Shown here: positions 1 to 9,856 of the stretch, in pieces
Layout: every line of letters begins with the position of its first letter
How positions within the stretch are numbered: the stretch's first letter is position 1
Virus record (IMG/VR): IMGVR_UViG_2695420526_000009
Direction: 5' to 3' (one strand)
DNA: 9,856 nucleotides
From: a virus
Taxonomy: Duplodnaviria; Heunggongvirae; Uroviricota; Caudoviricetes
Program-made: the position numbers and the translations under genes
The notes under the pieces: model-generated
What the model was told of the DNA's origin: nothing
What the model saw: only the letters and a program-made list of their open reading frames with translations
Database searches by the model: none

Positions 1-183
1 TACACTAAATCAGTAAGTTGGCAGCATCACCCCGCCACAGAACAATTATTGCTTTTGCCGTTGATGACAATAAAGTTTTTATCGCAGGCGTATACCACGG
101 TGGGCAAATCTATGAAACCGATTTTTTATCCAGTGCACCGTAAAACCCCCATCCTTCAGGGCGTGGCGGATATCAAACTTTGG

Positions 184-1266
184 TCATTTTCTCTGGCTGA
201 TCTTTACCGGATAACCATCCCGAAGATCAATTAAGTGCTCCGGTTCAGAAGCAAACCATGCATAAGATCCCCACGCCAATTCTGGTATTGCCTTTTTAAA
301 AGGCAGAGCACTTCTGTCCATAAATGCCGTAAGGAATGCAAGATTTTTCTCGCTGAACCCAGCGTCAATAGCCAAATGAGTGAGAGTAACTTTTCGTTCC
401 CTGTTTATAGGCCCATCTGTCGCAACTACTTCAGTGAAAACTACAAGCATGTCCGAACCCGTTCGGTCCTCTCCCAAATCAATCAAAATAATATCTGGAA
501 GTGCTTTTGAGGCATCAATATTCAGCCCCAATGCTTTTGCCAATACATCATCCTGAGCAACAACTTTATTCCCGGATTCAGACAACCAGAGCACAGTTGG
601 ATTCTTAAGAAAATTAGGAGCAAAAACTTCGATGACGGCCTTAGCTATTGTACTTGACGGGCCCGGAGCTAAAGTTCTCTTCTCTCCATTTGGGAAAGTG
701 ACGACTACGGCATCAGCAGCAATCACTGCCCCTGATTTCAATAAACGCAACCTAGCAAGAGCGGCTTTGTTCAAATGATTTTCTTGCCAGGAACTTATTG
801 CACTCAGCAGCGAATCTCCTTCAAGCCCGGCATCAAAGAGTGCTGCAAAAGAGCGATTCAAACTGTAACGAGGACGAGAGGATGTGGTGGGTATACCTTT
901 ACGCTCAACAATTGCATTGCAAGGTATTAGGCCATTTTTTATAGTTTCATCACGTATTGGCTCACGCGTATTTTCCGCATACCATGCATCAGCAGGCCTT
1001 ATCTTTTGTTTAGAGAAAGTCATCTTTACCCAGCTTTCTCTGGACGCATCATCAGTAAGAGCAGCCTGCGAATCTCCCATACTTACAACCTGGCTGGGCC
1101 TTATCCATCGCCCCAGCCCCTCAACCGCACCAGCATAAAACATGACAAAAATTGTTTTTGCAGCTATTTCCCGAATTAAATATCCACGATTCTCAGTCCC
1201 TTCAGGGAAAATTAATTGTAATCTTTCCCGGATAACATTCAATGGGGGAACAACAGGCAGATTCAT
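184..1266 (-). CDS. Putative Type II restriction endonuclease (BsuBI/PstI-like), 360 aa
   Basis: Uninterrupted 360-aa ORF. Its ATG (1266) overlaps the stop of the upstream methyltransferase in an ATGA junction (1263-1266), indicating translational coupling. Position immediately downstream of an N6-adenine MTase fits an M-R operon. BsuBI/PstI family assignment is from recalled similarity of the N-terminal region, not a search; no PD-(D/E)xK motif was positively identified by eye. Confidence 0.55.
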   Translation of the reverse strand: MNLPVVPPLNVIRERLQLIFPEGTENRGYLIREIAAKTIFVMFYAGAVEGLGRWIRPSQVVSMGDSQAALTDDASRESWVKMTFSKQKIRPADAWYAENTREPIRDETIKNGLIPCNAIVERKGIPTTSSRPRYSLNRSFAALFDAGLEGDSLLSAISSWQENHLNKAALARLRLLKSGAVIAADAVVVTFPNGEKRTLAPGPSSTIAKAVIEVFAPNFLKNPTVLWLSESGNKVVAQDDVLAKALGLNIDASKALPDIILIDLGEDRTGSDMLVVFTEVVATDGPINRERKVTLTHLAIDAGFSEKNLAFLTAFMDRSALPFKKAIPELAWGSYAWFASEPEHLIDLRDGYPVKISQRK

Positions 1267-3095
1267 GCAATCATCACTCCATAGAAACCAGCGATAGTTC
1301 TCTCAATAATCCGTCTGTGGACGCCAGCATCAATTAACGATTGAATCTCCATCACCTGCTCCAGAGAAGGCAACGGGATTGAATTCAATTCATAGGCCGA
1401 AACAGCAACACTTCCGCTTATACACCTGAACGCCCGATCGACAACATGCGAATTAAGTAGCATATCAATAACATCAGGGCGAACCGCAGAGAACAATCCG
1501 TTTGAATATACAATATTAATATGGTTTTCAACTACTACGCCACCAGTTTCATCTATAAATCCCTGAGGTAAAATTGCCGCTAAAATCCTTCTGTCCTGTT
1601 CCTTCGATGTTGTCCGCTGAACAAGCACACATTCAGATTTTGTCACAAGGAAACCCTGTTGTGGGGTTATATCGATATAGGGAACATGATTTTTTCTGTC
1701 TGCACTAAAACGAAAACCAGCTGAAGTTATTGATTCCGCCCAGACTAATGGGTAGCTATTTTTTCCTTTCGTCGTACGCAACTGCGACTTAAATCGATTC
1801 CAGACTAACTGACCTGTAGAGACTGAGTATCCCAGATCAGCTAAACGCGTAGACATCTGTTTTAATACATTAAGAAAACAGGCATCATCTTTAACGCGTG
1901 GCAAAAGCCACGTTGCTCCACCTTTTTCTATATCAACATTACCTATTTTCTCAATTTTTGCTTTGTTCAACCCCTTAGGGACAAGTGAGGATACCTGGGC
2001 CCGAACTTTATGTTCTCCCGCCTTGAATGCTGTCAACATTGTTTCCTGGAGAACATCGTCAAAGACCCCATCCCTGTCAGTGACGAAATCAAGGGCATAC
2101 GGAGTAGTTTTTTCGGTCAAAAGGGTTCGCAGCGCGGTGAAATACTGCCCACCAAGAAAAGAAGTTGGCGTAAGAAATGCAATAACTCCTGTTTTCTCTT
2201 TAACCATGCGAACAGCTAAGTCGGTGAACAATCCATATAGATTTGCATGACCAAATAACGAACGAGAATATTTTTCTCTCGTTTTAATATCGAGAGTGAC
2301 ACGTCCGTAAGGCGGATTCCCTACCACAAGATCATAACCAGAAAATTTATCTTGCTGAAGCGCATCAGCAACAATAATTGTATCTTCAGGCAATCTACGT
2401 TTTACCTTTACACATAGTGGCATTAGTACAGATTCGAGCAATACCAAACTCATCCAAGCCGCAAATGGATCGATCTCTATCCCCTTTAAACGACGACTGA
2501 TTCTCCTCAACATCCATTCAGGGGAAGACCCCTTGTCTTTTTTTAACATTCGAATGGCTACTGGTGCCAAAAATGCACCGCCACCACACGCAGGATCAAT
2601 AACCGATGCATGAGAAAAATCAACACCAGACTTTTCAGCCAGGTCCAAGAGACGCGCTACCAAAGGTGGGGGGGTATAGTAAGCCCCCAATTCCGAACGG
2701 TAAGCGGATGGCAGCATTACCGTATAAATTGACCCAATCAGATATCCAGCGTCCTCCGCCGGAAATTGAGCAATAAGCTCACCTGTTCGTTCAGCGAGCT
2801 CGCGTGCATCACATGGAATGTCTTCTATGTAAACAGTGTGCGGTACTGCCCTCATTTTAATGCTGCTTTTTTGCTTTTTTGCAAGGGTATCCCAATATGC
2901 AGCTACGATGCTGAAGCAGTATGAGCGGGCATGCATCAACCTTGACTGCCCGGTTTTGTAATTGCCCGCATAACCTTTGGCCATGGCTTTACAAGTTTGA
3001 TATCTTTCCAGATTAGAAAACTCATTATCTGTAAAAAAATCAAAATGTTGCACATTCATAATGTAAAATCCTAATGTATCAAACATGCGGGCCAT
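1263..3095 (-). CDS. N6-adenine DNA methyltransferase, gamma class (Eco57I/PstI-like amino-MTase), 610 aa
   Basis: Translation contains GAYYTP (aa ~137-142), SAM-binding motif I VIDPACGGGAFL (aa 165-176, nt 2577-2597 verified by back-translation) and catalytic motif IV VVGNPPYGR (aa 257-265, NPPY at nt 2307-2318 verified). Motif I preceding motif IV is the gamma-class order. Start is ambiguous: ATG 3095 has no clear SD; an in-frame ATG 12 codons downstream (MNVQ...) has AGGA 9 nt upstream. Confidence 0.85.
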   Translation of the reverse strand: MARMFDTLGFYIMNVQHFDFFTDNEFSNLERYQTCKAMAKGYAGNYKTGQSRLMHARSYCFSIVAAYWDTLAKKQKSSIKMRAVPHTVYIEDIPCDARELAERTGELIAQFPAEDAGYLIGSIYTVMLPSAYRSELGAYYTPPPLVARLLDLAEKSGVDFSHASVIDPACGGGAFLAPVAIRMLKKDKGSSPEWMLRRISRRLKGIEIDPFAAWMSLVLLESVLMPLCVKVKRRLPEDTIIVADALQQDKFSGYDLVVGNPPYGRVTLDIKTREKYSRSLFGHANLYGLFTDLAVRMVKEKTGVIAFLTPTSFLGGQYFTALRTLLTEKTTPYALDFVTDRDGVFDDVLQETMLTAFKAGEHKVRAQVSSLVPKGLNKAKIEKIGNVDIEKGGATWLLPRVKDDACFLNVLKQMSTRLADLGYSVSTGQLVWNRFKSQLRTTKGKNSYPLVWAESITSAGFRFSADRKNHVPYIDITPQQGFLVTKSECVLVQRTTSKEQDRRILAAILPQGFIDETGGVVVENHINIVYSNGLFSAVRPDVIDMLLNSHVVDRAFRCISGSVAVSAYELNSIPLPSLEQVMEIQSLIDAGVHRRIIERTIAGFYGVMIA

Positions 3096-3154
3096 AACAT
3101 CTCATGGTGGCGCATAGCAAACTGGCCCGAAGAATATCACGCACCAAGTCGATC

Positions 3155-3170
3155 TCATAACCCGTTATGA
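3155..3170. promoter_or_regulatory. Perfect inverted repeat TCATAAC-CC-GTTATGA upstream of the methyltransferase start
   Basis: 7-bp perfect arms with a 2-bp centre, about 60-75 bp upstream (minus-strand sense) of the M gene start within the 3096-3309 intergenic region. Candidate operator or promoter-associated site; no binding protein identified. Confidence 0.3.
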
Positions 3171-3309
3171 CAATAAATCTTTGTAGCTGAACTCACTTGG
3201 TGATTTGTCAATCATTCCTGGCCTCCAGTTCGTCCTGAATCTCTTTATCGAGTTCACCGTATTTGTTAGTCCTCATCACTCACGACTTGACTTCCAGAAA
3301 TAACCTTGA

Positions 3310-3666
3310 TTATTCGGGGCTATATTTTGTCACCCTGCGTATCCGCGCTTTCGCATTACGCTCAATCTGGATTAGCTTTTCTATATTTTTTCGCCTTTCC
3401 CGCTCCTCCTGGCGCAAGAGCCTTACATCATCTGCCAGTCTGGTTTCTCTTTTCGCCACAGAGAGCATCCAGTCAAATGGCTCCACAACTGCACCGCAAA
3501 TTTTACAGCGGACCTGACGCTCTTTTTCGTCAACCCGTACAGAGGCGTGATGGCAATATGGTCTTTCCGATGGCTCATAAAGAAAATTAACCTGATTACG
3601 AGGGTTATCCTCTTTTACCGGAAATAAAACAATATTGCTTAACTCATCTTCTGGTTTTATTTCCAT
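3310..3666 (-). CDS. Hypothetical Cys/His-containing protein, 118 aa
   Basis: ATG at 3666 preceded by strong SD AAGGAGAGGAGC. Contains C-H-H ... C-x2-C cluster (RPYCHHASV...RCKICGAV) and a basic, coiled-coil-like C-terminus (RLLRQEERERRKNIEKLIQIERNAKARIRR). The longer ORF from the track (to 3723) is rejected because the SD sits just before the internal ATG. Confidence 0.6.
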   Translation of the reverse strand: MEIKPEDELSNIVLFPVKEDNPRNQVNFLYEPSERPYCHHASVRVDEKERQVRCKICGAVVEPFDWMLSVAKRETRLADDVRLLRQEERERRKNIEKLIQIERNAKARIRRVTKYSPE

Positions 3667-3723
3667 GCTCCTCTCCTTTGATGCGAATGCCAGCGGTAAT
3701 TGAAGCCTGATAGCTAATTTCAC

Positions 3724-4113
3724 TCACAGTACCGCCTCCTGAAAATCACCCTGATAGAAAGCCGGTACACGCTGCATAACTTCACTCTTCCGGCACTCGC
3801 GACAGATTATGTTCTGATGTCTGTCGTAGCGGCGTATTTCTCCGTCCGGTAATGACCAGATAAGGTCCGGATCAACCACAGATGGTTTCTTCAGCTTTGC
3901 CCTCGAGAGTTTTTTGCGGGCGTTTTGCCAGTCCTTACGCGCCTGTTCAGACGGGAATAACCCGTAACCAGAGTTGTATACATCGCCACTGGCAACCAGC
4001 TCTCTGGCGAGAACACTCATCAGATATCTTGTCGCACCTGTCTTGGCTTCCAGTTGCCGCAACGTCTCGCGACCGCTCAGACGTACAAGTTCAACAACCT
4101 GCCCTTTAATTTT
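3724..4113 (-). pseudogene. 5'-truncated copy of a phage gene (paralog of 4249-4431), N-terminus replaced by an IS end
   Basis: Reading frame is open from the IS boundary (4113) to the stop at 3724; it encodes ...KIKGQVVELVRLSGRETLRQLEAKTGATRYLMSVLARELVASGDVYNSGY..., matching the N-terminal region of the gene at 4249-4431 but lacking its first ~11 codons, which are replaced by IS sequence. Confidence 0.6.
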
Positions 4114-4238
4114 TGAGGTAGCCTGAGTTTAACGGACACTCCTTCCTGAAATAGAATGGCATCAGAAGGAGCTAATAATGAGCAGAAAAACCCAACGTTA
4201 CTCTAAAGAGTTCAAAGCCGAAGCTGTCAGAACGGTTC
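4114..4238 (+). mobile_element. IS3-family insertion sequence left end (IS600-like), truncated by the scaffold gap
   Basis: Begins with TG (TGAGGTAGCCTGAGTTTAACGGACAC...), followed by an SD (AAGGAG) and ATG at 4178 opening orfA (MSRKTQRYSKEFKAEAVRTV...), which I recall as the IS600 OrfA N-terminus. The element stops at the N-run, typical of assembly collapse at a repeat. Confidence 0.75.
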
Positions 4239-4248
4239 NNNNNNNNNN
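4239..4248. other. Assembly/scaffold gap (10 N)
   Basis: Ten consecutive n characters in the sequence. Confidence 1.
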
Positions 4249-4431
4249 GTAGCCAGAGTTGTATACATCCCCACTGGCAACCAGCTCTCTGGCGAGAACG
4301 CTTATTAAATATCTTGTCGCCCCGGTTTTAGCTTCCAGTTGTCGTAACGTCTCGCGCCCACTCTGGCGTACGAGTTCAACAACCTGCCCCTTAATTTTTT
4401 CCCGCTCTTCCTGTGTAAATACTTTTGCCAT
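4249..4431 (-). CDS. Hypothetical phage protein, N-terminal 61 codons (partial; 3' end lost at gap)
   Basis: ATG at 4431 (MAKVFTQEEREKIKGQVVELVRQSGRETLRQLEAKTGATRYLISVLARELVASGDVYNSGY), GGGGG SD-like stretch upstream, 15 nt after the stop of the preceding gene. The track ORF 4198-4446 reads through the N-run and IS and is an artefact. Confidence 0.6.
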
Positions 4432-4446
4432 AAGCGCCCCCGGCAA

Positions 4447-5172
4447 TCACTTTTCCGACACAATACGACCGGAGGAATCGACAATCTGTCGAACAATATC
4501 CCGGTGCTTGTTCAGCTCCCGCAACGCGGCGCAGACACGCTCCCACTTCTGGACATGACTTTTCGCCCGACGCAGTTCGCGGTTTGCCATATGCAGCGAT
4601 GGTAAAACCAGGTCATCCGCTTGCGTTTCGGTGAACGATGGCAACGACTGCACAATGTCCGCCACAGTTTCTGTTTTAATTTCTTCCTGTGTTGCAGCTT
4701 CCTGTACCGGTAACGCAACACCTGCTGGCTGAGGAAAGACTTTACCATCCGTTTCCGCTATGGATGCGGCTTTCGGCTCTGCCGGTAAATCAGCGCCCGG
4801 TATGCAGTACCGAAATTTACCGCCCTGATTCACGCGAATCAGACGCCCTTTGCTGATTGCCATGGCCAGCGATGAATTCGCCCGGCGGGAGGTAATCCCG
4901 AACATCAGTGCCAGCTCATCCGCCGTTTGTGGGCCATGTTGTTCAATCGCCTCAGTCAGCATTTGCGCTGTCACTTTCGGTACCGGTGACACTGGTTCAC
5001 TTTCACCAGCCTGAATCAGCCACCACATCGAACCCTTGTTATCCGCTTCACCACGGCGCTTCAGTTTCCACAGTTCGTTGACCGCATCTTCACGGCTGAT
5101 TCCAAGGCGGGACGCCACCACATGTGAAGAGGCTCTTTTCAGTGCTTTCAGTGCGTCAAATACAGTTTCCAT
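4447..5172 (-). CDS. Hypothetical phage protein, 241 aa
   Basis: ATG at 5172 ([13 protein letters not shown]...) preceded by GGAGGATG SD; the track's longer start at 5190 is a TTG. Lies directly downstream of the DnaC-like gene in the same operon. No recognisable motif by eye. Confidence 0.7.
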
Positions 5173-5193
5173 TAAAACATCCTCCAACAAAAA

Positions 5194-5940
5194 TTACTTC
5201 ACAACTCCCGGAAAGCTGACATTTGAACGCCAGCTATCCCAGTTAAACGTCACCCACCGACAACCGTTCATGGTCATGCGGTCCATAATCCTCTCACCAA
5301 GAAGCGTGCTCATTGCGGCATGATTCAGGTTTGTTAACATCCCGACACTGCACAGTGATGCTGTCCGGCGATCAATTATCTGGTGCAATACCACCTGCTC
5401 GTTTTTCGTCTCCCGCTGAATGCCTATTTCATCCAGGACCAGCAAATCAACCCCGCAAAGCTCCTGTAAAAATTTTTCACCGGATTTGCCGTTGTCGTAG
5501 CTGTCATGCAACACGCTCATGACATCAGACTCGGTGACGATAATCACGCTGCGCCCCTTCGCCATCAGCCGGTTACCCATCGCCGCTGCAAGGTGATTTT
5601 TCCCGGTGCCGGTTTTACCGCTGAACACAAAATTCGTGCACCCGGTCATCAGTTCGTCAGCTATGGATTTGGCCTGGCTCAGCGCGTATTTTTGCCCGTC
5701 GTTCTGCACCTGATAATTCGCAAACGAGCATTTGCTGTGCAGAGGCTGGATGCCCGAACGATTCAGGATTTTTTCCACCCGCAACTGGCGATTCTGGCGG
5801 TTAATCTCCTCGCTGCGTTTTCGTCCTTCAGCAAGTTGCCATTCCCGCCACTCCTCCACCGTCCGGTACGGTGGAACCGCCCCCTGTGGTGCAAGTCTGT
5901 GAATACGTTCAAGAACCCCGGCTGCCGCAATGTTTTTCAT
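5194..5940 (-). CDS. DnaC-like replicative helicase loader (AAA+ ATPase; Rac YdaV-like), 248 aa
   Basis: Walker A FSGKTGTGKNHLAAAMG and Walker B DLLVLDEIG; near-collinear resemblance to E. coli DnaC as recalled (e.g. RSGI-PLH, FENY/FANY, GERVMDRM/GERIMDRM, FNWDSYRS/FNWDSWRS). Stop of the O-like gene is 6 nt upstream. Confidence 0.9.
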   Translation of the reverse strand: MKNIAAAGVLERIHRLAPQGAVPPYRTVEEWREWQLAEGRKRSEEINRQNRQLRVEKILNRSGIQPLHSKCSFANYQVQNDGQKYALSQAKSIADELMTGCTNFVFSGKTGTGKNHLAAAMGNRLMAKGRSVIIVTESDVMSVLHDSYDNGKSGEKFLQELCGVDLLVLDEIGIQRETKNEQVVLHQIIDRRTASLCSVGMLTNLNHAAMSTLLGERIMDRMTMNGCRWVTFNWDSWRSNVSFPGVVK

Positions 5941-5946
5941 GCCACA

Positions 5947-7011
5947 TCACCCCCTGAATCCCGGCGGAATTTCGGTATCCGGTTCAGAAATATGATTCAC
6001 ACAACGCTGGTTGTTCGTGCCGCTTACCGGGAGCAACCAGGGGTTTTCAAAATTCCGGTCCGGCCCAAAAAACGTCGTCGCTCGCTGAACAAATTCCGTT
6101 CCCGCTTTCCCGGTCGCCGCCAGGTATCTCGCGTAACGCCTCACACCATCCAGCATGGTCTCTGGTGGCACCCCCTCGCGCAATCTGGCCTTCCAGGCAC
6201 TGAATGCGGATTTCTTCGGGTTTGCCCCGGCACGCAACGGGTATTCCCGCCAGACCTGTTCGAACACATCCGGATAATCCACTCGTCCCACAGGCTGCCC
6301 GGTGTTTTCCGGGGCTACCCGATCGGCTTCCCGCTGAATGGCGGAATCGGCTTCAGGCTGCTGCAGTTGGAGTGATTGCTCCGGCCTTGCGGTCATCACC
6401 TGCTGCACAGCGCCCGAATCGGCTTTCAGCGCATACGCTGAATCGGCTTCCGGTGTCGAGCCTGCTGGCTGACCAGGATTGACGGTCTGAACATCCCCTG
6501 CCTGGTTCGTGGCGTTTTTTACGCCATGGACCATAGTGTTTTGATCTTCTTTATCTGTATCTTTATCTGTATCTGTCGTGACTCGTCGTGACATGTGCGT
6601 GACATTTCGTGACGCGCCGTGACAATCGCCATTTTGTTCCCGCTTTCTTTCCCTCTCTCGCTGCGCCCTCTTGCGCTCTGCAGGAGATTTTGCGGTTTGC
6701 GAAATATTGCCGTTGTCCTCTTTAAGCACCTGGCGTTTTTCCCATCCAGTGATTAAATCACCATCAAGTACCCGCCCCTGCATCGTCTGCAAAATTGAAT
6801 CAATTACCTCTTCTGTCACGTCGAGCGCACTTGCCAAATCTTCTGTCGTGACATCAATGTGACCTCGCGTGACATTTCGTGACGCGCTCACCAGGAGGTG
6901 GATATACACTGCCATCACTGTTGCAATTGGCTGCCCTGACACCCTGGCAATTGTTCGCCACTTAGGGTCATTTGGCATGTCATGCCATAATCTGAGCCAG
7001 GCGTTAGCCAT
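5947..7011 (-). CDS. Phage replication initiator, O-like (Rac YdaU-like), 354 aa
   Basis: Position between the YdaT-like gene and the DnaC-like loader. Iteron arrays lie inside the coding sequence, as with lambda O/ori. ATG at 7011 with GAGGTG SD-like sequence upstream; the track start at 7017 is GTG. The central region is low-complexity (TDTDKDTDKED) and encoded by the repeats. Confidence 0.75.
   Translation of the reverse strand: MANAWLRLWHDMPNDPKWRTIARVSGQPIATVMAVYIHLLVSASRNVTRGHIDVTTEDLASALDVTEEVIDSILQTMQGRVLDGDLITGWEKRQVLKEDNGNISQTAKSPAERKRAQRERERKREQNGDCHGASRNVTHMSRRVTTDTDKDTDKEDQNTMVHGVKNATNQAGDVQTVNPGQPAGSTPEADSAYALKADSGAVQQVMTARPEQSLQLQQPEADSAIQREADRVAPENTGQPVGRVDYPDVFEQVWREYPLRAGANPKKSAFSAWKARLREGVPPETMLDGVRRYARYLAATGKAGTEFVQRATTFFGPDRNFENPWLLPVSGTNNQRCVNHISEPDTEIPPGFRG
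6549..6623. repeat. Origin-like region: tandem 12-bp AT-rich repeat (CTTTATCTGTAT x2) followed by five CGTGAC iterons at ~10-bp spacing
   Basis: CTTTATCTGTAT at 6549-6560 and 6561-6572; CGTGAC at 6577, 6587, 6598, 6608 and 6618 (one helical turn apart), all within the O-like gene. Confidence 0.6.
6846..6887. repeat. Second iteron cluster (four (T/C)GTGAC copies), sharing an exact 21-bp block with the first
   Basis: CGTGAC/TGTGAC at 6847, 6858, 6868 and 6878; GCGTGACATTTCGTGACGCGC occurs at both 6597-6617 and 6867-6887. Confidence 0.5.
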
Positions 7012-7082
7012 ACTCACCTCTTCTGATACCGAATCTTTTTACTCACGAGTTGCCGGGAGCGATTCGATATGGCTATTGTCAG

Positions 7083-7508
7083 TCAATGTACTGCCACAGC
7101 ATTTCCTGCCGGGCCACCACGGTTCATCTGATTGAAACCGGCGATTGCCACTGCGACAAAATCATCAGCGTCTCTCACCAGTCGTTCATGCGTCTCCACC
7201 AGTTCCCGAAAATAAGCTGAACTGTGGCTGCGCATTCGAGCCACCAGCGGAGGTGGCATTGCCCTTTCGATCGCAGGTAACAACGCCTGAATTTTTTCAA
7301 CAGCGTCAGGGGTGTCTTTATCCAGCCAACGGAAAATCTTTTGGGTGTTGAGATAAAGCGTGTTGTGCTTGCTGTCGTTATGCAGAACCGGAAACGTCAT
7401 TCCCAGTTCGAAATAAACCCTGGTTATTTCAGCTGCCGGAACTTTTTCACCGTCCGGATGCGCCCAGGCTTTCATCGCCATGCGGATGTGTTCATGCTTG
7501 ATTTTCAT
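7083..7508 (-). CDS. YdaT-like protein (CII-position regulator of Rac-type prophages), 141 aa
   Basis: Immediately downstream of the Cro-like gene with ATGA overlap (7505-7508) and upstream of the O-like gene, the position and size of Rac YdaT. Assignment is by synteny and size, not a search. Confidence 0.65.
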   Translation of the reverse strand: MKIKHEHIRMAMKAWAHPDGEKVPAAEITRVYFELGMTFPVLHNDSKHNTLYLNTQKIFRWLDKDTPDAVEKIQALLPAIERAMPPPLVARMRSHSSAYFRELVETHERLVRDADDFVAVAIAGFNQMNRGGPAGNAVAVH

Positions 7509-7768
7509 GAATCAACCCCCGCCGATGGTTGTGTGTTAGCCTGAAACTCAGCAGGCAAGCCGTCAGTTGGGTTGGGGTAGGTTTTACTGTCAATCTCATG
7601 TGGGGTCACCACCCATCCCGTTGCTTCACACCAACGTAATATTTTTTCTCCTGTAAGTTTTGCACGCCCCGTTATAACGTGGCTGACCATCCCTTGGGAT
7701 GCGCCAACAATCTCAGCAAATGAACTCTGGGTTATATGAAAATGATGCAAATATTCTCCAAGATTCAT
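7505..7768 (-). CDS. Cro-like HTH protein (XRE family; YdaS-like), 87 aa
   Basis: HTH-like segment QSSFAEIVGASQGMVSHVITGRAKLTGEKILRW; divergently placed against the repressor gene. ATG 7768 chosen (MNLGEY...); the track's longer start at 7795 is a TTG. Confidence 0.7.
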   Translation of the reverse strand: MNLGEYLHHFHITQSSFAEIVGASQGMVSHVITGRAKLTGEKILRWCEATGWVVTPHEIDSKTYPNPTDGLPAEFQANTQPSAGVDS

Positions 7769-7803
7769 AATCCGCCCTATGTGATGTGTTACCAATGCAT
7801 AAT

Positions 7804-7845
7804 TAATAGCACTGTTATTTTTAAAAGTAAATAGTGATACTATTT
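7804..7845. promoter_or_regulatory. Divergent switch region with two operator-like palindromes
   Basis: Perfect palindrome AAATAGT-GAT-ACTATTT at 7829-7845 and imperfect TAATAGC-ACT-GTTATTT at 7804-7820, in the 111-bp AT-rich spacer between the divergent repressor and Cro-like starts. Confidence 0.5.
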
Positions 7846-7879
7846 CAAAGTGATTAGCAATCTTATTAGAATTGGATGT

Positions 7880-8380
7880 ATGAAAAGAAAATCATTGTCA
7901 GACACCGACCTCAACGCCGCCAGAAGACTGAAAGAAATCTGGATGGCAAAGAAATCTCAGTTGGGATTGACTCAGGAACGTGCGGCGGAAATTATGGGGT
8001 TTTCAACACAAGGGGCGGTAAGTCACTACCTAAATGGTCAAACCCCACTAAACCTTGAGGCTGTTCTAAAGTTTGCTGGCTTACTGAAAGTTCCCCCTGA
8101 GTCAATCAGGCCAGACATGGTAGATTTGCTGCAAATTGCAAGGATGTATTGTCGAGAACCACAGCAAGATAACATAGTCGCATTACCAGCAGACACAGAA
8201 CAAACAGAGGATGAACTACCGTTTGCCGTAGAGCCGATGGAACGAGATTTAATCCATACGTTCAGAGCTTTTCCGAAAGAAGATCAAGAACACATGCTTC
8301 AGGAGATGAAAGATAAAAAAGAATCAATGGATCGTACGGTTGCGCGGTGGTTAGCTGCACAAAAAGGCCGTCGCGCCTAA
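7880..8380 (+). CDS. Prophage repressor, XRE-family HTH (RacR-like), 166 aa
   Basis: HTH LGLTQERAAEIMGFSTQGAVSHYLNGQTPL near the N-terminus; no S24 peptidase (LexA-like) domain visible, consistent with RacR-type rather than cI-type repressors. ATG 7880 (MKRKSLSD...) preferred over the track's GTG at 7850. Confidence 0.8.
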   Translation: MKRKSLSDTDLNAARRLKEIWMAKKSQLGLTQERAAEIMGFSTQGAVSHYLNGQTPLNLEAVLKFAGLLKVPPESIRPDMVDLLQIARMYCREPQQDNIVALPADTEQTEDELPFAVEPMERDLIHTFRAFPKEDQEHMLQEMKDKKESMDRTVARWLAAQKGRRA

Positions 8381-8399
8381 ATCAGAGGAGATATGTAAA

Positions 8400-8594
8400 A
8401 TGAGTACAGTCCTTTCCCCAATGGTTTCAGAATTTGAGACAGTTGAGCAAGAAAATAGTTACAACGAATGGCTGCGGGCCAAAGTAGCAGCAAGCCTCGC
8501 GGATCCCCGCCCGGCGATTCCGCATGATGAGGTAATGGCGGAAATGGAACAAATTATTGCCCAAATTGCTGCTGCAACTCACAGAGGTGAATAA
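8400..8594 (+). CDS. Putative type II antitoxin (partner of the ParE/RelE-family toxin), 64 aa
   Basis: Small acidic ORF with SD GAGGAG 9 nt upstream; its TAA stop overlaps the toxin ATG (TAATG at 8592-8596). Antitoxin family (ParD/Phd-like) not determinable by eye. Confidence 0.6.
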   Translation: MSTVLSPMVSEFETVEQENSYNEWLRAKVAASLADPRPAIPHDEVMAEMEQIIAQIAAATHRGE

Positions 8595-8884
8595 TGTTAC
8601 CCGTTTTATGGCTACCATCTGCTCGTGATGATTTGCGCCAGATCGTAGCCTACATAGCTAAAGAAAATCCCGCGGCAGCACGCAGAATGAAAATTCGAAT
8701 TGAAACATCCGTTTTGCCGCTCACAGAGCATCCTTACCTGTATCCTCCAAGCGAGCGAGTTCTTGGTCTTCGTGAAATTGTAACTCATCCTAACTACATC
8801 ATCCTTTACCGAGTAACAGCATCAAGCATAGAAGTAGTAAATATTGTGCATTCTCGAAGACAGTATCCAGGCAAAAACAGTTAA
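8594..8884 (+). CDS. ParE/RelE-superfamily toxin, 96 aa
   Basis: Size, basic C-terminus and family-typical pattern (N-terminal W...ARDDLRQIVAYIA; C-terminal LREIV...YIILYRV...IEVVNIVHSRR) plus the overlapping upstream small gene. Confidence 0.75.
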   Translation: MLPVLWLPSARDDLRQIVAYIAKENPAAARRMKIRIETSVLPLTEHPYLYPPSERVLGLREIVTHPNYIILYRVTASSIEVVNIVHSRRQYPGKNS

Positions 8885-8898
8885 TTATTCCCGCCGAC

Positions 8899-8925
8899 AG
8901 AACCACCTTAGGGTGGTTTTTTCTT
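8899..8925 (+). terminator. Rho-independent terminator after the toxin gene
   Basis: Stem AACCACC (8901-8907) / GGTGGTT (8912-8918) with loop TTAG, followed by a T-run (TTTTTTCTT). Confidence 0.6.
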
Positions 8926-8939
8926 GCCCCAACAAAAAA

Positions 8940-8986
8940 CAATAGCGATGCTATTTACATCAAAAAAAAATAATGATGCTATTGTT
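8940..8986. promoter_or_regulatory. Second operator-like cluster (OL-like) with candidate rightward promoter
   Basis: Palindrome AATAGC-GAT-GCTATT at 8941-8955 and half-site copy AATAAT-GAT-GCTATT at 8969-8983, same consensus as the 7804-7845 sites. A TTTACA -35-like hexamer lies at 8954-8959; no convincing -10 was found. Confidence 0.45.
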
Positions 8987-9164
8987 TCAGGCGTCAACCC
9001 ACCCCGCCCCACAGAATGCAGGGCAATACTTCGAGTTACCAGACAGTGGTCAGGGGTTAAGTAGCCAGCCCGAGGCGTAAGAACATGACGGCAGGGTTCA
9101 ATCTTTAACTATGCAGCAGGTTTTTTGTTCCGCCACCCCGGCGTTAAGGGGAAATGAGGTCAGC

Positions 9165-9317
9165 ATGGATACTATCGATCTTGGCAACAACGAATCTCTG
9201 GTGTGCGGCGTGTTCCCTAACCAGGATGGAACGTTTACCGCCATGACGTATACCAAAAGCAAAACGTTTAAAACCGAATCTGGCGCGCGTTGCTGGTTAG
9301 CCAGAAACACTGACTGA
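9165..9317 (+). CDS. Small phage protein, 50 aa (YdaF-like by position)
   Basis: ATG 9165 with GAGG SD 5 nt upstream (MDTIDLGNNESLVCGVFPNQDGTFTAMTYTKSKTFKTESGARCWLARNTD). The track's longer start at 9111 lacks an SD. Confidence 0.55.
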   Translation: MDTIDLGNNESLVCGVFPNQDGTFTAMTYTKSKTFKTESGARCWLARNTD

Positions 9318-9328
9318 TGAGGCTGACG

Positions 9329-9694
9329 ATGGAATTTAAAGATTTACCGTCTGATGTACAGAAAACAGCAGCTCATACATTGCATTCTGTGCTGCGAGAA
9401 ATCGGGAAAGATATTGCAAGCGAGCCAGCAAAAGATCTGGCCCGGAAAATCAAGACCGCTTTCGTTGAGCTTTATAATGTTGGCACTGACTCTGAAACTG
9501 TCGAGACCAAGACCGTAAGTTCACCAATATTCTCACTTGAGCCAAGCGTATTATCAGGTGAAATATGCACCGAGATTTCCAGCGAACTGCTTCCGGTAAT
9601 ACGAGAAGCAATTCGCCGTCGCGGTTTGGATGGAAGTTATGATCATGACGTTCTGCAAGTTCTCAGGACAATGGTGACTTCACTGGGGATTTGA
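9329..9694 (+). CDS. Hypothetical acidic phage protein, 121 aa
   Basis: ATG 9329 with GAGG SD 6 nt upstream (MEFKDLPSDVQ...); the alternative ATG at 9317 overlaps the previous stop (TGATG). No recognisable motif. Confidence 0.6.
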   Translation: MEFKDLPSDVQKTAAHTLHSVLREIGKDIASEPAKDLARKIKTAFVELYNVGTDSETVETKTVSSPIFSLEPSVLSGEICTEISSELLPVIREAIRRRGLDGSYDHDVLQVLRTMVTSLGI

Positions 9695-9856
9695 TCCCTG
9701 CGTCCTCTAAGCTTTTGATATAGCGGTCCTCCAAGAAGCGGTAAATTTTGTCGAAATCATCTTTTCCCTCTGGTTTATTCAGAGGATTACAGGACCCGTA
9801 AGTAGCGGCATACATTTCAACCGTTTGGTAATGACTCCAACTTATTGATAGTGTTT

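Follow-up and report, generated by a model that had tools for sequence, protein, structure and literature searches.

The 9,856-nucleotide (nt) viral stretch recorded in IMG/VR as IMGVR_UViG_2695420526_000009 (hereafter "the window") carries a genuine two-gene type II restriction-modification (R-M) cassette on its minus strand between positions 184 and 3095, as judged from the sequences of the two proteins and the arrangement of their genes. The cassette pairs a methyltransferase gene (M) with a gene for a PstI/BsuBI-family nuclease (R). We consider it quite likely that this cassette is active, such that it methylates the host chromosome and cuts unmodified incoming DNA, and that it is phage cargo surviving in a dead prophage. 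The system is already known and is an ordinary member of a well-understood kind, as is evident from its family names in RefSeq, from a PADLOC model that covers it at full length, and from published survey counts. Many type II R-M systems of prophages have been described before, and the finding has little importance beyond annotation.

The M open reading frame (ORF) spans positions 1263 to 3095 and is listed at 610 amino acids (aa), and the R ORF (184 to 1266) encodes a 360-aa restriction endonuclease of the BsuBI/PstI/SdaI family. The genes are adjacent and separate, and the stop codon of M overlaps the start codon of R as ATGA (GCATGAAT, positions 1263 to 1266, minus strand), with GGAG located 10 nt upstream of the R start. 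A preliminary description of this DNA had proposed this M-then-R coupling, and reading of the sequence confirms it. The same overlap is present in related cassettes from Kluyvera, Serratia, and Citrobacter, and the pair with its ATGA overlap is conserved across five genera. The proposed type II assignment is likewise upheld by PADLOC, whose MTase_II and REase_II models match the two proteins over their full lengths.

The M protein has the motif order of a gamma-class N6-adenine methyltransferase, and all three motifs named in the preliminary description were located on the minus strand. YYTP lies in the motif X region (aa 139-142, positions 2670 to 2681), DPACGGG forms motif I for binding of S-adenosylmethionine (SAM; aa 167-173, 2577 to 2597), and NPPY forms the catalytic motif IV (aa 260-263, 2307 to 2318), after which a C-terminal target-recognition domain follows. 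The NPPY residues align with those of M.TaqI, which is the closest solved relative over motifs IV to VIII, and with those of the methylase of EcoGIII, a type II system of Shiga toxin (Stx) prophages. Pfam returned the two families that had been predicted for M, Eco57I (1.7e-13) and N6_Mtase (2.1e-09), both above their gathering scores, and the PADLOC match to MTase_II (PDLC03338, 996 bits) covers model positions 2-602 of 604. The top NCBIfam matches are other adenine methylases, every one of them below its cut-off.

The true M product is probably 598 aa long and starts at the second ATG (position 3059, Met13), because homologues among the matches listed are nearly all 598 aa, because the upstream ATG of the 610-aa ORF is ATA in the Citrobacter cassette, and because AGGA is present 9 nt ahead of the second ATG. 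It had also been suggested that M exceeds PstI-type methylases by roughly 100 residues and might therefore have a novel specificity. The extra length is real, at about 110 residues, but the argument built on it is weak. Residues 240-584 of M are colinear with residues 119-465 of the EcoGIII-type methylase from motif IV to the C terminus (25% identity), and the additional residues form an N-terminal domain that precedes motif X and lies outside the target-recognition domain. The added length is therefore uninformative on specificity when taken alone.

For R, Pfam reports BsuBI_PstI_RE_N (PF17728; aa 10-172, 1.2e-30, 106.6 bits) and BsuBI_PstI_RE (PF06616; aa 188-349, 9.3e-45, 152.2 bits), each against a cut-off of 27 bits, and PADLOC reports REase_II (426 bits, model positions 3-350 of 364). 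The preliminary description had named BsuBI_PstI_RE as the expected family and had let its reading depend on R having an endonuclease-family match and a catalytic motif. Both Pfam domains are present, and the PD...E motif is conserved. The protein combines a winged-helix DNA-binding domain at its N terminus with a nuclease domain of the PD-(D/E)XK type at its C terminus, an architecture also seen in SdaI (PDB 2ixs), which is the only solved relative (phmmer 1.8e-16, aligned over aa 96-349). SdaI is also the sole match below 1e-3 in a Foldseek search with an AlphaFold model of R (E=6e-12, probability 1.00).

Conservation in R was assessed in an alignment of eight subfamily members plus the Stx-phage enzyme and in a 24-member alignment of the subfamily. 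Eight residues are invariant in both (K234, P257, D258, E279, V281, G285, P286, and R291). Among these, P257-D258 (positions 493 to 498) and E279 (430 to 432) make up the putative catalytic core (430 to 498, minus strand). The SdaI residues aligned with D258 and E279 are D233 and E248. In the model, D258 is predicted to lie just ahead of a strand at residues 259-263, and E279 to close a strand at 274-279, which would be the usual PD-(D/E)XK layout.

The best-conserved stretch of the N-terminal domain is NTREPIRDET (aa 99-108; positions 943 to 972, minus strand), a candidate recognition helix. The stretch is shared with the EcoGIII-type nuclease and with SdaI, and residues Y96, A97, R101, E102, and R105 are invariant in this region. 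The pattern Y-A-x-N-T-R-E-x-x-R is common to R and the EcoGIII-type enzyme, and SdaI has GSRE..R. By analogy with the SdaI structure, this helix would contribute to base recognition.

Comparison with other loci supports the conclusion, drawn from sequence comparison, that the cassette is horizontally acquired phage cargo in the form of a self-contained module. The compact unit of about 3.0 kb (about 179 to 3218) recurs in a Kluyvera lambdoid prophage with lambda-P/DnaT-type replication genes (window 179-3218, 81% identity), in a Citrobacter freundii lambdoid prophage (187-3169, 76%), and in a Serratia marcescens P2-like prophage, where gpA and the portal gene flank it (192-3059, 67%). Homology of the S. 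sonnei copy to all three ends at the cassette edges. In lambdoid prophages the slot is bordered by the replication genes on one side and by RusA/Q on the other. A related E. coli prophage carries DUF551 and hokD there in place of the cassette; it shares the flanking hypothetical gene, and homology resumes at 3299. Both the cargo status and the horizontal origin that the preliminary description had suggested are thus borne out by the presence of the same unit in unrelated prophage backbones and by a related prophage that has the slot without it.

Base composition points in the same direction. Between 184 and 3095 the guanine-cytosine (GC) content is 43.6%, compared with 53.6% in the replication genes (4447-7017) and 49.1% in 3096-9856. 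The hand counts made earlier on two 60-nt samples prove exact (43.3% for 241-300 and 63.3% for 6301-6360), and the contrast over whole regions is smaller than in those samples, yet real. It is the low GC content, the sharp boundaries, and the occurrence in several prophage backbones that together lead us to conclude that the cassette was acquired horizontally.

Both genes are under strong purifying selection. For each, the ratio of nonsynonymous to synonymous substitution rates (dN/dS) is 0.08-0.10 relative to the copy in E. coli VL7S7 and 0.056 relative to the Kluyvera copy. Each protein has more than 3700 relatives, and the subfamily of approximately 360/598 aa extends across Enterobacterales, Burkholderiales, Pseudomonas, Vibrio, and Aeromonas. 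In IMG/VR, 27 viral contigs encode relatives at 50-100% identity. No near-identical DNA was found among 50,697 phage records, in which the matches by protein are of the distant EcoGIII type.

The homology to the Kluyvera (179-3218) and Citrobacter (187-3169) cassettes includes a conserved leader of about 160 nt upstream of M (3060 to 3218, minus strand). This leader travels with the cassette and presumably holds its promoter. By-eye alignment reveals a conserved GAGATCGA that contains a Dam GATC site. In addition, the block GGGTTATGAGATCGA(C/T)...GCGTGATATTCTTC...TATGCGCCACCATGAG is conserved among the S. sonnei, Kluyvera, and Citrobacter cassettes and may have a regulatory function. The M leader was also inspected for a palindrome that might hint at the recognition site, but none is common to the S. 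sonnei, Kluyvera, Citrobacter, and Serratia cassettes. There is also no C-protein controller gene in the cassette, whose boundaries (179-3218) enclose M and R only. The 137-aa ORF upstream (3310-3723) was considered as a controller and rejected, as it is a phage backbone gene that is present in a prophage lacking the cassette.

These features suggest how the system might operate. M would use SAM to mark the host copies of one short sequence as a gamma-class N6-adenine methyltransferase, and R, translationally coupled to M through ATGA, would cut unmethylated copies of the same sequence, such as those on phage or plasmid DNA entering the cell. Because M precedes R and the two are coupled through ATGA, we infer a control logic in which R is made only after M has been translated. 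With this gene order, a shared leader, and coupled translation, methylation would run ahead of restriction on arrival of the cassette in a new cell. In S. sonnei the carrier prophage has decayed to a remnant at the Qin site, and IS1 has removed everything past R, yet both genes are intact in essentially the whole species.

Known systems related to the cassette differ from it in several respects. PstI and BsuBI (CTGCA^G), the prototypes of PF06616 and PF17728, have nucleases of about 316-326 aa and methylases of about 500 aa, with divergent transcription of the two genes in the case of PstI. R matches both of their Pfam domains well above threshold, whereas PADLOC provides separate full-length models for the 360/598-aa subfamily (PDLC03589/PDLC03338) that score far above those for the shorter relatives. 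SdaI, reportedly a 323-aa enzyme from Streptomyces with the 8-bp site CCTGCA^GG, shares the two-domain architecture of winged helix and nuclease with R, but is only about 21% identical to it. EcoT38I is said to reside on a P2-like prophage as an accessory "moron" cassette. It resembles the present system as a compact type II cassette in a variable accessory slot of a temperate phage, but belongs to another enzyme family and has another specificity, GRGCYC (rmsFinder table, PMC10359461).

EcoGIII is the most thoroughly studied relative from this host group. This system occurs in Stx2a prophages of E. coli O104:H4, O145:H28, and O111:H-, methylates and cleaves CTGCAG (PMC3893438), protects against lambda-like phages, and alters gene expression (PMC3893438, PMC6602927). 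As in the cassette described here, it is a prophage-borne type II system of Escherichia/Shigella in which M precedes R with overlapping genes, M is a gamma-class N6-methyladenine (m6A) methylase, and R is a nuclease of the BsuBI/PstI family whose invariant PD...E, G-x-K, and R residues are common to both systems. By this analogy, the S. sonnei cassette would serve in anti-phage defence. The differences are nevertheless substantial. The EcoGIII-type methylase has 489 aa and lacks the N-terminal domain of about 110 aa, the EcoGIII-type nuclease has 317 aa compared with 360 aa here, and EcoGIII follows cI directly within the immunity region, whereas the present cassette lies between the replication genes and Q.

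The window derives from Shigella sonnei. Its cassette is 100% identical to one complete S. sonnei chromosome, the exact M and R protein sequences occur on at least 1000 contigs labelled S. sonnei, and R is listed in 4192 blocks of the assembly collection. By comparison, only 2 of 5426 complete E. coli genomes carry the cassette (FDAARGOS_943 at 99.9% and VL7S7 at 99.2% identity), and in these RefSeq names the proteins "HsdM family class I SAM-dependent methyltransferase" and "BsuBI/PstI family type II restriction endonuclease." In a PADLOC-based survey, 994 S. sonnei genomes yielded 982 type II R-M systems, and their R-M content was described as highly uniform (PMC13293514). The survey does not name the system, which is very probably this cassette. 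Thus, it is seemingly the one type II R-M system of essentially every S. sonnei, and its specificity is relevant to genetic manipulation, phage therapy, and plasmid flow in this species.

Gene order in complete S. sonnei chromosomes reveals that the carrier is what is left of a defective lambdoid prophage, which occupies the Qin site and has a replication module of the Rac type. The order begins with dicB, DUF1391, ParE/PaaA2, a cI-like repressor, cro, YdaT, and a replisome organizer, continues with a DnaC-like ATPase, DUF1627, DUF977, a hypothetical gene, M, and R, and ends with IS1, a mannitol dehydrogenase (ydfI-like), ydfZ, a GntR regulator, a short-chain dehydrogenase, and dcp. The remnant therefore abuts ydfI/ydfZ/ydfH/ydfG/dcp and has the Qin-type neighbours dicB, DUF1391, and ydfA-like genes; no late genes are present in the S. 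sonnei element in these chromosomes. The preliminary description had called the prophage "Rac-like," which holds for the replication module, where Pfam identifies YdaT_toxin, an IstB/DnaC-like ATPase, and DUF977, and RefSeq names a replisome organizer and a toxin of the YdaT family. It does not hold for the element as a whole, which is neither the Rac element nor at the Rac chromosomal site, but at the Qin site in S. sonnei and beside potC in E. coli FDAARGOS_943.

The prophages of E. coli FDAARGOS_943, VL7S7, and an NCTC strain are complete or largely so, and in them M-R is followed by ParDE, DUF968, RusA, Q, and the lysis and head genes. In S. sonnei, IS1 InsA/InsB stand directly after R in the chromosomes for which IS1 was called at this place (L004, L006, L009, and L010). 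Position 1 of the window corresponds to position 11266 of L004, 25 nt before insA, and homology to the intact E. coli prophage begins at window position 32. Positions 1 to 31 accordingly represent the end of IS1, which truncates parE 152 nt past the R stop codon. The last 36 codons of this toxin gene remain at 33 to 143 (plus strand, convergent with R), where the surviving part of the prophage ends, and their translation is identical to the C terminus of ParE in FDAARGOS_943. ParE is complete in the E. coli versions, whereas S. sonnei has lost its partner parD and the whole late region. This erosion by an insertion sequence, halting just short of the cassette, illustrates how an R-M module can outlive its carrier.

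Why the cassette should outlast its carrier bears on its role. One possibility, which we hold to be the lesser one although it is compatible with defence, is that selfish addiction through post-segregational killing is the main reason for the persistence of the cassette. After gene loss, dilution of the methylation would expose the chromosome to residual nuclease, and this would stabilize the cassette together with the flanking remnant, regardless of any protection against phage. Type II R-M systems can act like toxin-antitoxin systems (PMC13293514). Moreover, the IS1-associated erosion that took the whole late region and ParDE halted 152 nt beyond R, and about 99% of the genomes retain both genes intact even though gene decay is a known trait of this species. 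The cassette also adjoins toxin-antitoxin modules in several prophages. However, clonal inheritance in a young species would alone give near-universal presence, and the purifying selection evident across genera fits either role.

A more speculative proposal, which we judge to be somewhat doubtful, concerns specificity. The PstI/BsuBI/SdaI relatives of known specificity recognise CTGCAG or CCTGCAGG, and the Y-A-x-N-T-R-E-x-x-R stretch in R is compatible with a related site having a TGCA core, while proving none. The 598/360-aa subfamily might instead recognise a non-CTGCAG site, such as GTCGAC by means of a PstI-type fold, and the system might then act both as a barrier throughout S. sonnei and as an addiction module that preserves the prophage stump. 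If this were true, recognition of GTCGAC by a PstI-type fold would add a specificity or a cleavage geometry not seen before in the family, and a system fixed in S. sonnei would shape which phages and plasmids can be acquired and would explain why the stump survives. The window itself contains two CTGCAG sites and no GTCGAC site, which is uninformative at this length.

We regard it as improbable that the target of this particular pair is GTCGAC, the site of SalI, and not a site of the PstI type. The idea stems from the rmsFinder table of Shaw et al. (PMC10359461, Supplementary Data S2), which assigns GTCGAC to the REBASE pair M.Sso53GORFDP (100%) and Sso53GORFDP (100%) from S. sonnei 53G at gene indices 2427/2428. 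With about one type II system per S. sonnei genome (PMC13293514), this pair might be the cassette studied here. In several S. sonnei chromosomes, of 4.8 Mb in all, the cassette is located at ~2.15-2.19 Mb, which would fit index 2427. However, the identity of the Sso53GORFD entry with this cassette could not be confirmed, the genome code in the table is labelled E. coli, and no matching genome was present among the complete E. coli genomes searched. Two further observations argue against GTCGAC. S. sonnei DNA is cut by SalI into ribotyping fragments of 2-12.5 kb (PMC2740698), which would be unexpected if every GTCGAC carried m6A, and the SalI nuclease belongs to another family than SdaI and PstI (PMC2441816).

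An active system must also be weighed against the alternative that the nuclease is silent or inactive in S. sonnei, such that M is an orphan methylase with epigenetic effects only, or both genes are unexpressed relics. Several observations weigh against the main reading. R lacks the canonical catalytic Lys of PD-(D/E)XK nucleases, with Ala at the position of SdaI K251, the Lys three residues after the Glu. A consensus scan found no sigma-70 promoter in the M leader and no convincing promoter or terminator in the leader or after R, and the carrier prophage is defective. Literature searches for an S. sonnei methylome, for this protein pair, and for its RefSeq accessions WP_000113425.1 and WP_001053102.1 returned nothing; they also returned neither experimental data on the system (methylome, cleavage assay, or plaque assay) nor a published specificity for the pair. 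The structure model of R is of modest confidence (mean pLDDT, the predicted local distance difference test score, of 68, with the C-terminal third below 50), and EcoGIII, from which the analogy to defence is drawn, is only 25% identical for M and 26% for R. Finally, in S. sonnei GCA_040189005.1 (L006, 8209-10004), the M gene is broken into two called ORFs (133 and 428 aa), whereas R is whole. If this split were real, then R would not be lethal without M, but a sequencing error is the likelier cause, since the YdaT and organizer genes are shortened there too.

We nevertheless regard a silent nuclease as unlikely. The R gene has a dN/dS of 0.06-0.10, retains the invariant catalytic acids, and is intact and sequence-identical over thousands of S. 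sonnei assemblies despite the many decaying genes of this species. The catalytic motif of R, as read from the alignments, is the normal variant of its family and not a defect, because the canonical Lys is also missing in the EcoGIII-type enzyme (Thr at that position) and because Lys migration has been documented for the R.SdaI subfamily by Orlowski and Bujnicki (PMC2441816). An identical copy of that EcoGIII-type nuclease in strain C227-11 was reported to be biochemically active (PMC3893438). The Lys of R may have relocated to K234 (positions 565 to 567, minus strand), which is a candidate for this role as an invariant residue, and SdaI has a Lys in the corresponding "RGK." That the cassette is simply an ortholog of EcoGIII is ruled out by the 25-26% identity, the different prophage slot, and the lack of a near match in 50,697 phage records.

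Several features of the window lie outside the cassette. A second toxin-antitoxin pair, this one intact, is encoded at 8400-8884 (plus strand), immediately downstream of the cI-like gene (7850-8380), and comprises a 64-aa PaaA2-like antitoxin and a 96-aa ParE-family toxin, labels that come from Pfam matches of identical genes in S. sonnei loci. The prophage remnant thus retains one toxin-antitoxin module and one R-M module, while its structural genes are gone.

The window is a scaffold of two contigs joined by 10 N at 4239-4248. This gap separates the R-M cassette from the replication module in the window, but complete genomes confirm that the two are linked. Positions 4115-4238 correspond to the left end of IS600 and the start of its orfA (99% identical to annotated IS600 copies). 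The segment at 3965-4114 and the approximately 150 nt after the gap (4249-4398) map to one stretch of the DUF977 gene in the S. sonnei reference. The first of these DUF977 copies has 18 mismatches clustered in 3940-4105, whereas the second is identical to the reference. The contig end is probably the DUF977 copy of another prophage, interrupted by IS600. Lastly, a 289-aa ORF at 5506-6375 (plus strand) lies on the strand opposite to the DnaC-like and replisome-organizer genes, where the GC content of the window is highest, and is most likely a spurious ORF created by base composition.

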